Shown piece after piece: positions 2,638-14,974 of a stretch of DNA of 64,000 nucleotides. Positions within the stretch are counted from its first letter, which is position 1. Each line of letters begins with the position of its first letter. The stretch comes from Bacilli bacterium. GTDB taxonomy: Bacteria; Bacillota_I; Bacilli_A; RF39; UBA660. The notes beneath the pieces are model-generated. The model did not search any database. It was not told where the DNA came from and saw only the letters and a program-made list of their open reading frames with translations. Position numbers and translations under genes: made by a program. Where the stretch lies: contig JAFYER010000012.1 in NCBI GenBank assembly GCA_017544165.1, positions 719-64,718 of the forward strand, read 5' to 3'.

Positions 2638-4008
2638 TTAAAAATCACAATTTTTGTGAACTCTTGGATAAGGTGTTACATCTTTAATACTATCAATACC
2701 TGTAATATACATAAGAAGTCTTTCAAAGCCTATACCAAACCCACTTCTCTCACATGTTCCATATTTTCTAAGTTTTAGATACCATTCGTATTCATCGATT
2801 TTCATATCTAATTCTTTCATTCTGGATACTAATTTATCTAAATCTTCTTCTCTTTGACTCATACCAAATACTTCTCCAATTCCAGGCATTTCTAAATCTG
2901 CACCTGCAACGGTTCCATCTGGCATTTGTTTCATATAGAATGATTTTAATTCTTTTGGCCACATTGTTAAAAAGAATGGACACTTAAAGTAATCTGTTAA
3001 ATACTTTTCATGTTCTTTTGCTATATCAGCTCCATAAGTAGGTTCAAATTCAAAACCTTTACCACTCTTTTGTAATATTTCAATACATTCTTTATATGGT
3101 ACTCTTTTAAATTCACAAGTTAATACTTTAGTAAGTCTGTAAATTAAACCTTCTTCAACATACTTATCTAAATACTCCATTTCATACTTCGCATGATCCA
3201 GTGTGTATTTAATTACATATTTAACTAAATCTTCTGCTATATCCATAATTCCATCTAAGTCACAAAACGCAACTTCTGGTTCAATTTGCCAAAACTCTGC
3301 TACATGGTATGGTGTATGTGATTTATCTGCTCTAAATGTTGGCCCAAAAGTATAAACTTTACTAAATGCTTGTGCAAATGTTTCTGCTTCAAATTGAGTT
3401 GAAACAGACAATCCTACTTTCTTGCCAAAGAAATCATCTTCATAACTAACTTTTCCAGTTTTAGCAATTTCATCTAAATCTTGTGTTGTCACTTGAAACA
3501 TTTCTCCTGCCCCTTCGCAATCACTTGCTGTAAAAATTGGTGCATGTAAATATAAGTAACCATGTGATTGAAAATATTCATGTATAGCCATTGATAATAT
3601 ACTTCTTACTCTAAATACAGCTTGAAATAATGTTGTTCTTGGCCTTAAATATGCCTGTTCTCGTAAAAATTCACGAGAATGTGCTTTAGGTTGAATTGGA
3701 TAATCTTCTGGGCAATCTCCTATAAGAGTAATCTCTTTAGCTTTTAATTCAAAACTTTGACCTTCTGCAGGTGAAGGTATCAATGCGCCTTTCACCTTGA
3801 CAGATGATCCAAAATGAATTTTTGAAATATCTTCAAAATCCTTTGTATCCTTATCATAAACTACTTGAAGTTTTCTAAAACAAGTTCCATCAGATAAATC
3901 AATGAACCCAACTTCTTTTTGTTTACGATGCTTTCTTATCCAACCTTTAACTTCTACATCTTTGTCCAATAATTCTCCATGCGAATCGTAAATTCTTTTA
4001 ATTTCCAT
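2638..4008 (-). CDS. asnS: asparagine--tRNA ligase
   Basis: Class IIb aaRS pattern, FRADKSHTPYHVAEFWQIEPEVAF...GFGIGFERL. The start was moved to MEIKRIY (4008), which follows the RBS AAAGGAG. A T-box leader lies upstream. Confidence 0.95.
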   Translation of the reverse strand: MEIKRIYDSHGELLDKDVEVKGWIRKHRKQKEVGFIDLSDGTCFRKLQVVYDKDTKDFEDISKIHFGSSVKVKGALIPSPAEGQSFELKAKEITLIGDCPEDYPIQPKAHSREFLREQAYLRPRTTLFQAVFRVRSILSMAIHEYFQSHGYLYLHAPIFTASDCEGAGEMFQVTTQDLDEIAKTGKVSYEDDFFGKKVGLSVSTQFEAETFAQAFSKVYTFGPTFRADKSHTPYHVAEFWQIEPEVAFCDLDGIMDIAEDLVKYVIKYTLDHAKYEMEYLDKYVEEGLIYRLTKVLTCEFKRVPYKECIEILQKSGKGFEFEPTYGADIAKEHEKYLTDYFKCPFFLTMWPKELKSFYMKQMPDGTVAGADLEMPGIGEVFGMSQREEDLDKLVSRMKELDMKIDEYEWYLKLRKYGTCERSGFGIGFERLLMYITGIDSIKDVTPYPRVHKNCDF

Positions 4009-4089
4009 TTTTATTTCTCCTTTCATAATAATATTTGTCAAAAATAGTTGTAGGTTCTATTTTTATTTTTTCCTCCTTTCTTTATTTAA

Positions 4090-4396
4090 TATAAAAACCC
4101 GTATCATCCTACAATATAAGGACGAATACGGGTATCCGCGGTGCCACCTTAATTTATTACTTAAAAAAACCATCTATATATACATATAAACGGTTTGTTA
4201 TTACAGTAATCTCTTTTTTCAGTTCTAACAAACCTAGCAACATGGTAACGGATTGCTCTCCGGACTAGTCTACTAAGATTACTCTTTTCGGTAGTCTGCT
4301 CAGGAGTGTTCTTTCGCCAAATGTTATTATTAGTTCACACTATACCTAACTCACTCGAATAACAATTTTGGGTACTTTTCTCCCTCAACGCAATTT
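4090..4396 (-). promoter_or_regulatory. T-box riboswitch leader (candidate Asn specifier AAC)
   Basis: Read on the minus strand. Stem I begins at TTGCGTTGAGGGAGAAAAGTACC. The candidate specifier is GAAAG-AAC-A (AAC = 4310..4308). The T-box motif AATTAAGGTGGCACCGCGG lies at 4153..4135. The terminator ATACCCGTATTCGTCC...GGATGATACGGGTTTTT lies at 4134..4093. Confidence 0.8.
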
Positions 4397-4398
4397 AA

Positions 4399-12954: not shown

Positions 12955-13038
12955 TGGTGGGAGGATATGGATTTGAACCATAGAACCCGAAGGAACAGAT
13001 TTACAGTCTGCCGCGTTTGACCACTTCGCTACCCTCCC
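12955..13038 (-). tRNA. tRNA-Tyr(GUA)
   Basis: GGGAGGGTAGCGAAGTGGTCAAACGCGGCAGACTGTAAATCTGTTCCTTCGGGTTC...CCTCCCACCA. It has a long variable arm and the anticodon loop CTGTAAA. Confidence 0.9.
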
Positions 13039-13169: not shown

Positions 13170-13703
13170 TTATTCTAAAGATAATTGTCCACTTTCTACT
13201 GGTAAACCACTATAATTTGCGTCTGTTAAGTTAATTGTTCTTTGAGCTCCAAGAGCATTTTGAATCTCTACAGTTGCCGTATCAGTAGTTAGCGTCGTAT
13301 TTTGAACAGTATTATCAAACTCATGATCACCATCTGAGGCAGTTTGTTTATAATAAATTACTGGTGCATTAGTAGCATCATATGGAACGTTGTCAAAGAC
13401 AGCATCACCATTTGCATTTGTAGTTATAGTGCTACCATATTCATTACCCGTTGCATCAGTTCTAACAAATGTTGCTCCGATGATTGGTGTACCACTAGAA
13501 GTACCATCTTCGGTTACATGAAGTGTTAAAGTTCCAGTTGCCCCAATCGTAAAAGCATAAGTGTTTGTGCCTTCTGTAATGTCTACAGATGTAGGCAAAA
13601 TACTTGCATTATCATAACCATTAACAGTAGCGGTAACATTATAACTTCCATTAACTATATCAGATGTTCCTGTACCATTAGTAATTGTTATTACTTTTGC
13701 CAT
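13170..13703 (-). CDS. hypothetical Thr/Gly/Asn-rich protein with a Cna-B / prealbumin-like repeat signature (177 aa)
   Basis: GATFVRTDATGNEYGSTITTNANGDAVFDNVPYD resembles Cna-B / SdrD-B type beta-sandwich motifs. There is no signal peptide. RBS is AAAGGGGAG. GC content is higher than in neighbouring genes. Confidence 0.55.
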   Translation of the reverse strand: MAKVITITNGTGTSDIVNGSYNVTATVNGYDNASILPTSVDITEGTNTYAFTIGATGTLTLHVTEDGTSSGTPIIGATFVRTDATGNEYGSTITTNANGDAVFDNVPYDATNAPVIYYKQTASDGDHEFDNTVQNTTLTTDTATVEIQNALGAQRTINLTDANYSGLPVESGQLSLE

Positions 13704-14023
13704 AAAATCATCTCCCCTTTATTTATTGGCAGATTGGCATAAAATTGATCTGTCAATAGAAAGGTAACTCTCCTTGAAAAAATTATACTTTGATACATTA
13801 TGGGATAGTAATTACTATTTGCATAAATTGTTCTACAATTAGTTATACCATTAATAGTAAAAACTATTTTATAAAAATCTTTGTCTTTTCCACAAAAGAC
13901 AAATATCCCACATTTGGTATATCCTGAAGCTATTTTTTGACCATTTAAATTATAAATAGTCACCTTTGCTTGGCATTTAGGGCATGCCCCCATTCCCATA
14001 AATTTAATTGTTATCTTTCTCAT
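13691..14023 (-). CDS. hypothetical Cys-rich small protein (110 aa from MRKITIKF)
   Basis: The start was moved to the ATG that follows the RBS AAAGGTGA. KVTIYNLNGQKIASGYTKCGIFVFCGKDKDFYKIVF looks like a prealbumin-fold segment. The C-terminus shares LTDxxYxxLPxxxGxxxL with the downstream 177-aa protein. Confidence 0.5.
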   Translation of the reverse strand: MRKITIKFMGMGACPKCQAKVTIYNLNGQKIASGYTKCGIFVFCGKDKDFYKIVFTINGITNCRTIYANSNYYPIMYQSIIFSRRVTFLLTDQFYANLPINKGEMILWQK

Positions 14024-14090
14024 TTCATCACCTTTCAATTTATAGTATGCATTTTTAAATATTTCGCATATAATAAATATCCCAATAAAA

Positions 14091-14116
14091 TAAAAAAAAT
14101 CACACAAATGTGTGAT
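14091..14116 (-). terminator. rho-independent terminator after tRNA-Thr
   Basis: ATCACACA-TT-TGTGTGAT hairpin followed by a T-run on the minus strand. Confidence 0.75.
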
Positions 14117-14166
14117 ATTTTTTAAATGGTGCCGACAGAGAGAATCGAACTCCCAACCTACTGATT

Positions 14167-14796
14167 CATACTACTATAGTTTTCACTACCACAAATGTGT
14201 TTGTAGTCTGGACTTTCTCTTAACCATGTTCAATAATGAATTTAGGTTCATCGTATAAAGTCTCTACACTCGGTTTAACCTAGCTCGGGATTGTCATACA
14301 AACTATATTTTTTTCTATCTTTCCTACCTTTGCCTCTATTTGCTCCCTTATAAGTAGAAGTTAATGAATGACAATTAGGACATAATAGAATTAAATTGGA
14401 TTCTGAATTGTTTAGGTAATTACCATCTATATGATCAATTTCTAATGGTATAACATGACTATAAACATTTCTCTCTCCCCAACCACATTTAGAACATTTA
14501 TTACCATATTTCATGAATAGATATTTTCTAACATAATTTGAGATTTGATATTTACCTTTCATACCATTTTCAATTCCATTTTGCCAATTACAAATATATC
14601 TTTTATATTCATATTCTTTTTGACAAATGTTATTGCAATAGACTTTTTTCCTTTTTAAAGGCTTACCACAATTTAAACAATTCATCTTCCCCCCAATATA
14701 GTCAATGAAGAGTTCCCCGAATTAGCGATGTCCACCTTAAAAGTTTCCTCTTAAGGGTGCAAGATAGTTCAAGAGTTGAATATCAACATCTATCCC
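14167..14796 (-). mobile_element. group I intron (IC3-like) in the tRNA-Thr anticodon loop
   Basis: The splice-site U36 can form a U.G pair with the internal guide CUAUCUUGCA (14767..14758). The terminal base is G (14167). The conserved-looking segments CUUUUAAGGUGGACAUCGCUAAUUCGGGGAAC and GGUUAAGAGAAAGUCCAGACU...GUAGUGAAAACU...GUAUG resemble tRNA-Leu group I introns as I recall them. An HNH ORF lies inside. Confidence 0.8.
14275..14685 (-). CDS. HNH homing endonuclease, intron-encoded
   Basis: An N-terminal CxxC...C zinc-finger-like segment, then the HNH motif EIDHIDGNYLNNSESNLILLCPNCH. The G-rich RBS is GGGGGGAAG. The ORF lies wholly within the intron. Confidence 0.85.
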   Translation of the reverse strand: MNCLNCGKPLKRKKVYCNNICQKEYEYKRYICNWQNGIENGMKGKYQISNYVRKYLFMKYGNKCSKCGWGERNVYSHVIPLEIDHIDGNYLNNSESNLILLCPNCHSLTSTYKGANRGKGRKDRKKYSLYDNPELG

Positions 14797-14839
14797 ACAA
14801 GTCAGTTGCGCTACCAATTACGCTATGTCGGCATAAAAA

Positions 14840-14916
14840 TGGTGGGCGATATAGGACTCGAACCTATGACCCCCTGCTTGTAAGGCAGGTGCTCTAACCA
14901 ACTGAGCTAATCGCCC
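14840..14916 (-). tRNA. tRNA-Val(UAC)
   Basis: GGGCGATTAGCTCAGTTGGTTAGAGCACCTGCCTTACAAGCAGGGGGTCATAGGTTCGAGTCCTATATCGCCCACCA. Confidence 0.9.
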
Positions 14917-14974
14917 GTCTTTCTTCAAGACAATTTAAATTATACTATATAATTAGAATTAGTGCAAGAAAAAA

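Follow-up and report, generated by a model that had tools for sequence, protein, structure and literature searches.

Does a threonine transfer RNA (tRNA) gene still yield a functional product when 630 nucleotides (nt) lie within its anticodon loop, and what is the inserted element? The question is raised by the minus strand of a 64,000-nt stretch of DNA from a Bacilli bacterium (GenBank assembly GCA_017544165.1, contig JAFYER010000012.1, positions 719 to 64,718), referred to below as the window, in which the gene for tRNA-Thr(UGU) is found in two parts. Comparison with related sequences makes it very probable that this gene is interrupted between U36 and A37 by a mobile, self-splicing group I intron of the IC3 type, and that the open reading frame (ORF) within the intron encodes an HNH homing endonuclease.

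A first-pass annotation, drawn up from the letters of the window, had proposed the two exons, and all the sequences and coordinates that it quoted match the window. When joined, they give the 76-nt cloverleaf that it described, with the anticodon loop CUUGUAA, and ARAGORN calls this product tRNA-Thr(tgt). An intron-aware search, which the annotation had recommended, returns the same gene from the genomic sequence as tRNA-Thr(tgt) i(37,630). The split gene is not seen by default ARAGORN or by the Rfam tRNA model, both of which show only tRNA-Val (14840-14916) and four other tRNAs. The point of insertion in the anticodon loop lies between U36 and A37, and the joined exons form a standard tRNA. 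Since the first exon ends in U and the intron in G, the boundary is fixed and only one split gives CUUGUAA.

The split gene is neither a product of chance nor an assembly artefact. An HNH ORF identical to that of the window is present on 11 independent contigs from different samples. The same tRNA-Thr(UGU) gene is split after base 36 at a minimum of 69 loci (at least) in a set holding one genome per species, 50 of these introns being ORF-less (225-245 nt) and 19 long (611-630 nt). The intron is also carried by two closed chromosomes, OZ006978.1 (L153) and CP091726.1 (L169). The short and long forms differ solely at the tip of one hairpin, the paired segment P5.

Intron-less alleles, for which the annotation had suggested a search, occur in related contigs, and when aligned to the window they are interrupted precisely at 14797|14166. 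Because BLAST stops at 14797 and resumes at 14166 in every case, the 630 nt constitute an exact unit of presence or absence. A scan for the intron-less junction together with the T-arm of this tRNA detected the uninterrupted gene on nine metagenome contigs, mostly within a Leu-Val-Thr-Tyr-Gln-Lys cluster. One intron-less locus (L259) has the orthologous NUDIX-Val-Thr-terminator arrangement and is 86-89% identical. Three sister bins (L064, L089 and L127) carry an intron-less tRNA-Thr(UGU) that is identical to the window's spliced tRNA at 71 of 76 positions, and throughout positions 20-50. For the allele of L064 (3541-3613) the Rfam tRNA model gives 71.7 bits.

It could be argued that the insert is not a group I intron, being instead an assembly chimera, a protein-spliced intron of the bulge-helix-bulge kind or an unrelated insertion in the anticodon loop. 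The argument would rely on the Rfam group I model, RF00028, which stays below threshold. At the gathering threshold, Rfam reports no group I match in the window; in a permissive run, the 3' half of the intron scores 25.4 bits (E=3.4e-4) against the required 50 bits, and the Rfam match that the annotation had named as a check formally fails. At threshold, RF00028 likewise finds none of the 14 loci with ORF-less relatives to which it was applied, the best permissive score being 42.4 bits (E=7e-8) over the full length of the model. Although below threshold, both matches have significant E-values, which favours homology. This shortfall is a weakness of the model on bacterial tRNA introns and not the absence of a ribozyme. 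According to Williams (bioRxiv 2020, doi 10.1101/2020.01.27.920355), none of the RF00028 seeds is bacterial.

Because RF00028 reached threshold for no relative tested, covariation and a profile of published seeds were used. The profile, a hidden Markov model, was built only from nine seeds of the Williams 2020 supplement (Azoarcus Ile2.5Ug, two Leu.3Ug, two Arg.5Ug, Thr.5Ug, Thr.3Ug, Met.2Ug and Ser.3Ug). It has a single match in the 64-kb window, on the minus strand at 14299-14170 (E=1.4e-13), which extends from the 3' strand of P5 through the end of P9. Once the ORF is excised, the core covers positions 11-226 of the 230 in the profile, with a score of 62.5 bits. The likeness to the IC3 introns of cyanobacterial and plastid tRNA-Leu(UAA), which the annotation had pointed out, is upheld by this match. 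Together with the recurrence of the identical ORF on contigs from different samples, the presence of U-1 and of a terminal G in all members and the covariation of the core helices in 56 relatives (P4 and P7 being uninformative), the match to published tRNA group I introns leaves almost no room for an insert of another kind.

The relatives were recruited by an exact 19-mer of the core, GTGTAGAGACTTTAYACGA, which is found in 42 viral contigs and at no fewer than 119 loci (at least) of the one-genome-per-species set. An alignment of 56 distinct Thr(UGU) introns, with the window ORF excised, was scored against a hand-built model of P1 to P9 in which P7 is treated as a pseudoknot. The model pairs 93.9% of the cells, as against 35.6-41.4% when the partners are slid by 1-3 columns, a comparison in which it is favoured because the fold was derived from the same sequences. 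Changes on both sides affect 33 of the 71 modelled pairs and are present in P1, P2, P3, P5, P6, P8, P9.0, P9a and P9b. The covariation score is 0.297 versus 0.129 after shuffling, and none of 500 shuffles reaches the observed value. The core order P3-P4-P5-P6-P7-P8-P9, with its P3/P7 pseudoknot, is kept through compensatory change, and the window's own sequence forms standard pairs at 70 of the 71 modelled positions. P4 and P7 are without informative variation, so that covariation speaks neither for nor against them; part of the constancy of P7 stems from recruiting the relatives with the core 19-mer.

The individual parts of the fold are listed in Table 1. The U·G pair claimed for the 5' splice site is formed by U36 (14797), which wobbles with G14760, and is kept in 56 of 56 distinct relatives. 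The terminal (omega) G with which the intron had been said to end is G14167; it is invariant in the alignment, and the boundary that it sets agrees with the empty-site alignments. The variable pair of P3 is A-U in 39 sequences, G-C in 12 and G-U in 5, while the middle pair of P5 is AU in 24, GC in 14, CG in 9 and UA in 9. Both variable base pairs of P8 covary (UA/AU/GU; AU/GC/GU), and P9.0, P9a and P9b each contain pairs changed on both sides and are 97-100% paired. Six of the seven P4 pairs are invariant, the terminal U·G being unpaired in 1 of 56. P7 is invariant in all 56, and its 5' strand lies within a motif, GUGUAGAGACU, that is common to the Azoarcus and Leu/Arg seeds. The alignment shows GAAA loops on P2 and P9b as well as CYUAAG...UAUGR motifs in P5 and P8, of which the window's own motifs are variants. 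By analogy with the Azoarcus structure, L2 may dock with P8 and L9 with P5.

Some points weigh against a mobile, self-splicing group I intron. Besides the advantage that the model enjoys over its slid controls, recruitment by an exact core 19-mer samples one subfamily, and RF00028 remains below its gathering score for the window and for all the ORF-less relatives tested. The P5 of the window has UUCA and not the commonest UAAG, its first pair is C·C, and P8, with CCUAAA/CAUGG, also departs from the commonest form. A sequence search of the PDB with the HNH protein gave nothing below E=0.1, the best value being E=0.12.

A genuine group I intron might also reside in a dead tRNA gene. The element would then no longer splice, and ACA and ACG would be read by another copy of tRNA-Thr, for which there is room elsewhere, since the view is confined to 64 kb of the genome. 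This is very unlikely. Both exons are undamaged and make a perfect cloverleaf, and the orthologous intron-less clusters have their only Thr(UGU) gene at this position. Moreover, ORF-less copies, which are unable to home, keep the fold by compensatory changes in dozens of species; this argues that splicing, and with it the tRNA, is under selection.

A splicing intron would operate as follows. The Val-Thr transcript would fold such that the guide at 14767..14758 pairs with the exon UGU and the 5' end of the intron, forming P1 and putting U36·G at the splice site. The P3-P9 core, with its P3/P7 pseudoknot and with GAAA loops (P2, P9b) opposite receptor-like motifs (P8, P5), would bind guanosine in P7 and cut after U36. 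The terminal G14167 would then take the guanosine site, and ligation of the exons would give a normal 76-nt tRNA-Thr(UGU). Intron-less tRNA-Thr(UGU) genes are the most likely substrate of the HNH protein encoded in the P5 loop; it would cut around ...CAACUGACUUGU|AAUCAGUAGG..., and repair would copy the intron into the cut gene (homing).

The assignment of the 136-residue ORF to the HNH proteins, made in the first-pass annotation, is confirmed by Pfam (HNH, PF01844; 26.2 bits versus a cut-off of 21.4). Its matches to the HNH families of PHROG reach E=7e-20. It is immediately preceded by a G-rich run that resembles a ribosome-binding site (14694..14686). Matches to the NCBIfam families IscB, ZorE and DotN are far below their cut-offs and were discarded as reflecting the shared HNH domain only, not membership. 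About 1,900 related proteins are 63-77% identical to it. In each of their contexts that was fetched, tRNA-Thr(UGU) is split at the same place, beside tRNA-Val and mostly tRNA-Tyr. Alignment of 27 members reveals an invariant N-terminal Cys4 ribbon (C3/C6/C17/C21), together with invariant C64/C67/C102, H85, N92/N93/N97 and H106; C105 is nearly invariant. The window copy holds C105 and every family-invariant residue. Among the long introns sampled, this HNH clade is found only in those of Thr(UGU) genes. PD-(D/E)XK proteins (PF11645) are encoded in Tyr, Asn and 'Stop'-labelled introns, and HNH_3 proteins in Leu and Phe introns.

The ORF had been placed in a peripheral loop. It does lie in the terminal loop of P5, but its last ~8 codons run through the 3' strand of P5, J5/4 and the 3' strand of P4 into P6. 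The end of the protein, Y-D-N-P-E-L-G-stop, is encoded by these segments and the 5' strand of P6. Reading through the ribozyme core at the end of the ORF is seen in two unrelated endonuclease families (HNH and PD-(D/E)XK), and several such ORFs terminate in ...VETL(Y/H/Q)(D/G)(E/K)P..., the translation of GUGUAGAGACUUUAUACGA. Examples are the window (14275-14300), P0013, P0078, P0097 and P0113, and L015, L020, L037 and L046.

In sister genomes the ORF is intact, split (L094), truncated (L091, L138, L161), reduced to a remnant (L073) or absent. The Thr(UGU) intron of L073 is 336 nt long, with a recognisable remnant of HNH coding sequence. Another Thr(UGU) intron (L118:1-651) bears an extra insertion of ~60-80 nt in the P1 loop, itself a long inverted repeat.

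It is conceivable, if rather improbable, that the intron splices while its HNH protein no longer serves homing, being inactive, a splicing helper or kept through a 3' end that is fused to the core. Part of the ORF is indeed constrained by the RNA, because its last codons overlap P5, P4 and P6. The ORFs of several relatives are broken, and 50 of the at least 69 Thr(UGU) introns are ORF-less; homing genes usually end in this way once they are fixed. Besides, no solved homing-endonuclease structure is near in sequence. However, it is the whole protein and not the tail alone that is conserved over the ~1,900 relatives, with its catalytic and zinc residues invariant. In addition, the window copy is intact, close relatives hold empty sites, and free-standing relatives adjoin the same kind of target gene.

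The free-standing relatives are viral. IMG/VR contains 207 relatives of the HNH protein, of which the best 80 (L176-L255) were examined. The ribozyme core is present on both sides of the ORF in 9 of the 80, and the five intron-borne viral cases that were read (L176-L179, L199) have tRNA-Thr(UGU) split at the same site. No core match is found in the other 71, and 69 of these have tRNA genes within the 3.4-kb locus. In 37 of these 69 free-standing loci the tRNA gene closest to the HNH gene is uninterrupted and has the anticodon UGU; the two genes invariably share a strand and are separated by a median of 55 nt. UGU-anticodon tRNAs account for only 54 of the 393 tRNAs in those loci, a background of 14% (binomial p=6e-15, relatedness ignored). 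Some of the UGU-anticodon neighbours are unusual tRNAs of 83-84 nt with long variable arms. It would appear that the phage HNH genes encode free-standing endonucleases located beside their presumed target. On a more tentative view, which we hold with slightly more doubt than confidence, the HNH protein of the window represents an undescribed homing clade specific to tRNA-Thr(UGU), free-standing beside UGU tRNAs in large phages and intron-borne in gut Bacillota and some phages.

The core motif is also seen outside Thr(UGU) genes. The 42 IMG/VR contigs that contain the 19-mer (L009-L050) are in many cases 100-230 kb long. In those that ARAGORN could resolve, the core mostly splits a phage tRNA (Asn(GUU), Leu(UAA), Lys(CUU) and others), and the introns are ORF-less as well as ORF-bearing. 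In a 2014 review, all the phage group I introns then known were in protein-coding genes and none was known in a phage tRNA gene (PMC3984707). A BLASTN search of the region against GenBank phages gave tRNA-level matches and one weak ORF match only, with no named relative. On viral loci the ARAGORN intron calls are often mis-split, and 'tRNA-Stop(tta)' is an artefact: one 'Stop' call (L021) becomes Lys(UUU) once U-1 and the terminal G are enforced. No suppressor claim is therefore made for the tRNA-Stop(tta) loci. With U-1 and the terminal G enforced, the split tRNAs of two viral contigs (L018, 172 kb; L022, 177 kb) join to CUA-anticodon cloverleaves, split after U35, with a weak D-arm in L018 and a long variable arm in L022. 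These could be intron-interrupted suppressor (amber-reading) tRNA genes. A 163-kb contig (L008), which may come from a phage or from a reduced bacterial genome, has a Thr(UGU) intron whose HNH protein is 71% identical to that of the window. The locus also contains a transfer-messenger RNA gene and 13 tRNA genes, besides small ORFs that are mostly unannotated. In this intron P1 is much shorter (UUGU/GCAA) and the 5' region differs.

In bacterial genomes, a related intron, 'Tyr.4Ug', interrupts the adjacent tRNA-Tyr(GUA) gene behind U35; in place of an HNH ORF in P5, its long forms have a PD-(D/E)XK (PF11645) ORF in the P1 loop (L056, L064, L071, L079, L091, L094, L098, L105, L110, L127, L157, L160-L162, L165, L167). 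Tandem interruption of the Thr and Tyr genes is seen in L091, L094, L098 and L160-L162; in the window, tRNA-Tyr (12955-13038) has no intron. The core motif further splits tRNA-Ser(GCU) and tRNA-Arg(UCU) in bins of Omnitrophota and Planctomycetes. Rhodospirillaceae and marine Alphaproteobacteria have it in tRNA-Thr(CGU), one gammaproteobacterial bin has it in tRNA-Pro(CGG), and one bin of Saccharimonadales in tRNA-Phe. Loci with other tRNAs include L055, L061, L062, L075, L076, L081, L083, L085, L093, L104, L114 and L121.

The introns of Azoarcus tRNA-Ile(CAU) (Ile2.5Ug) and alphaproteobacterial tRNA-Arg(CCU) (Arg.5Ug) are, like that of the window, inserted after base 36, with a U·G in P1. Like the window's intron, which also appears to lack P5abc, they have a small IC3 core; both carry GAAA loops on P2 and P9, and receptor-like motifs of the CCUAAG/UAUGG type, in variant form in the window. 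The 3' end of one Arg.5Ug seed, Bbo3, is almost motif-for-motif that of the window (AAGAGACAGUCCAGACCACAAAC...GAAAAUCG...GUGGUAUG). These introns differ in their host tRNAs and phyla and are ORF-less. Their self-splicing is experimentally established, whereas that of the window's intron is predicted. Structural work on them is given in PMC13168695. The tRNA-Leu(UAA) intron of cyanobacteria and plastids (Leu.3Ug) has the same IC3 architecture and conserved core, but is inserted between U34 and A35 and is ORF-less, unlike the ORF-bearing intron after U36 described here. Bacillus phage SPO1 provides a known intron-encoded HNH endonuclease, I-HmuI, which resides within a group I intron; such phage introns sit in protein-coding genes. 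The HNH protein of the window resembles those of this type in being intron-encoded, yet has no detectable sequence similarity to any solved HNH structure (see the PDB search above).

The annotation had regarded an ORF-bearing intron in tRNA-Thr as unusual, on the premise that the known bacterial tRNA introns mostly lack ORFs and sit in Leu, fMet/Ile or Arg hosts. As to the hosts, this premise is outdated. Thr is missing from the tRNA hosts listed in the 2014 review (PMC3984707). Since then Williams has scanned 80,413 bacterial genomes and, in the 2020 preprint, extended the four classical tRNA intron types to 21, Thr.5Ug among them; its seed alignment includes Rba53.Thr.5Ug, Thr.3Ug, Thr.2Ug, Tyr.4Ug, Ser.3Ug and Asn.4Ug. 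That preprint (doi 10.1101/2020.01.27.920355) contains no analysis of intron ORFs. The window intron is a 'Thr.5Ug' because it follows base 36 and has U-1 and a terminal G, a class in Williams' catalogue. Rba53.Thr.5Ug, as given there, has the same amino-acid host, insertion after base 36, U-1 and terminal G, and also the same core motifs (AAAUUCGGGGAA, CAAUCCCGAGC, GUGUAGAGAC and AAG.GA.AGUCCAG). It has a GGU anticodon and is GC-rich and ORF-less, in contrast to the HNH-bearing Thr(UGU) intron of a low-GC Bacillota. The tRNA-fMet intron of Synechocystis (I-SspI / I-Ssp6803I; Bonocora and Shub 2001, cited in PMC3984707) is likewise reported to be a tRNA group I intron with its own homing endonuclease, directed at the anticodon region of the tRNA gene. 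Its host tRNA and insertion point differ, and I-Ssp6803I is a PD-(D/E)XK enzyme, as in the sister Tyr and Asn introns (PF11645), whereas the protein of the window is an HNH enzyme with an N-terminal Cys4 zinc ribbon.

The intron type is thus real, common in uncultured gut bacteria and their phages and already catalogued in 2020. Because this kind of element was reported then, the window holds a well-documented new example and not a new phenomenon. The HNH gene and its free-standing phage relatives may be the new parts. No published account of an HNH gene in a tRNA intron, or of the family in gut Bacillota, was found in a partial coverage of the literature, which makes this a weak negative; a 2025 paper on a group I intron database contains nothing specific to tRNA-Thr or HNH.

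The surroundings are those of a Bacillota chromosome, with genes for SpoIVA, IleRS, a T-box-led AsnRS, PPDK and UvrC. The G+C content of 28-33% and the SpoIVA gene agree with the earlier description of the host as a low-GC spore former. The tRNA-Val and tRNA-Thr genes are probably co-transcribed. Two ORFs of 177 and 138 codons lie on the minus strand between tRNA-Thr and the Tyr-Gln-Lys genes (13170-14107); the longer has weak SpaA/prealbumin-like matches below the Pfam cut-off. In most relatives tRNA-Tyr follows tRNA-Thr within ~10 nt, and the two-ORF arrangement recurs on contigs with the identical HNH gene. The T-box leader (4115-4397, minus strand) scores 107 bits, above its gathering score, and stands upstream of a class II tRNA synthetase gene of the Asn/Asp/Lys type (2638-4041).

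Table 1. Features of the split tRNA-Thr(UGU) locus, in window coordinates
Feature	Position	Strand	Remarks
tRNA-Thr(UGU) 5' exon	14832..14797 (36 nt)	minus	tRNA positions 1-36, ends at anticodon U36; ARAGORN and BLAST end at 14797
Group I (IC3-type) intron, 'Thr.5Ug' in Williams' nomenclature	14796..14167 (630 nt)	minus	
tRNA-Thr(UGU) 3' exon	14166..14127 (40 nt)	minus	positions 37-76, CCA encoded; ARAGORN and BLAST restart at 14166
P1 5' strand, exon UGU + intron GGGAUAG	14790..14799	minus	98.4% paired; 3 pairs changed on both sides
P1 3' strand (internal guide sequence), CUAUCUUGCA	14767..14758	minus	
P2 hairpin, GAAA tetraloop	14735..14756	minus	9 base pairs, 8 changed on both sides; 96.4% paired
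P3 5' strand, CAUCG	14726..14730	minus	partner 14249-14253; helix 100% paired
P4 5' strand, UUCGGGG	14715..14721	minus	partner 14284-14290; motif equals AAAUUCGGGGAA of published seeds
P5 5' strand, CUC	14710..14712	minus	hairpin tip replaced by ORF
HNH endonuclease ORF, 136 amino acids	14685..14275	minus	in L5; TAA stop in P6 loop
P5 3' strand, GAC	14293..14295	minus	within last ORF codons
P4 3' strand, UCCCGAG	14284..14290	minus	within ORF, codons N-P-E
P6 hairpin, CUAGGUUAAACCGAG	14269..14283	minus	3 of 5 counted pairs changed on both sides; 99.6% paired
P7 5' strand, GAGACU, bulged A	14259..14264	minus	pseudoknot partner 14210-14214; presumed guanosine-binding helix
P3 3' strand, CGAUG	14249..14253	minus	
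P8 hairpin	14222..14248	minus	AACC...GGUU base, CCUAAA...CAUGG receptor-like motif; 100% paired
P7 3' strand, AGUCC	14210..14214	minus	preceded by J8/7, AAGAGAA (14221..14215); aligned to published seeds
P9 domain	14170..14207	minus	P9.0 (ACUAC/GUAGU) around P9a (14199..14190) and P9b (14189..14176, GAAA loop)
tRNA-Val(UAC)	14840..14916	minus	7 nt upstream of tRNA-Thr; Val-Thr order kept in relatives
Possible promoter, TTGCAC, 17 nt, TATAAT	14939..14967	minus	read by eye; -35 matches 3/6; not listed by promoter scan
Terminator-like hairpin and T-run	14099..14116	minus	10 nt past tRNA-Thr 3' end

RF00028 scores every tested member below threshold, and default tRNA finders pass over the split gene. 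Many gut Bacillota bins are therefore probably annotated as if they had no tRNA-Thr(UGU), although they do have it. If this is their sole threonine tRNA with a UGU anticodon, decoding of ACA needs RNA-catalysed splicing in many uncultured gut bacteria. The family spans every stage of the homing cycle, from the empty site to the ORF-bearing intron, the intron with a decaying ORF and the ORF-less intron. Should the proposed tRNA-Thr(UGU)-specific clade be real, it would offer a natural snapshot of a free-standing endonuclease invading an ORF-less intron and making it mobile, and the tRNA clusters of phages would be the vehicle carrying the intron between bacteria. With all the stages of homing and a free-standing phage clade beside its presumed target, the origin of a mobile intron may become testable on natural sequences.

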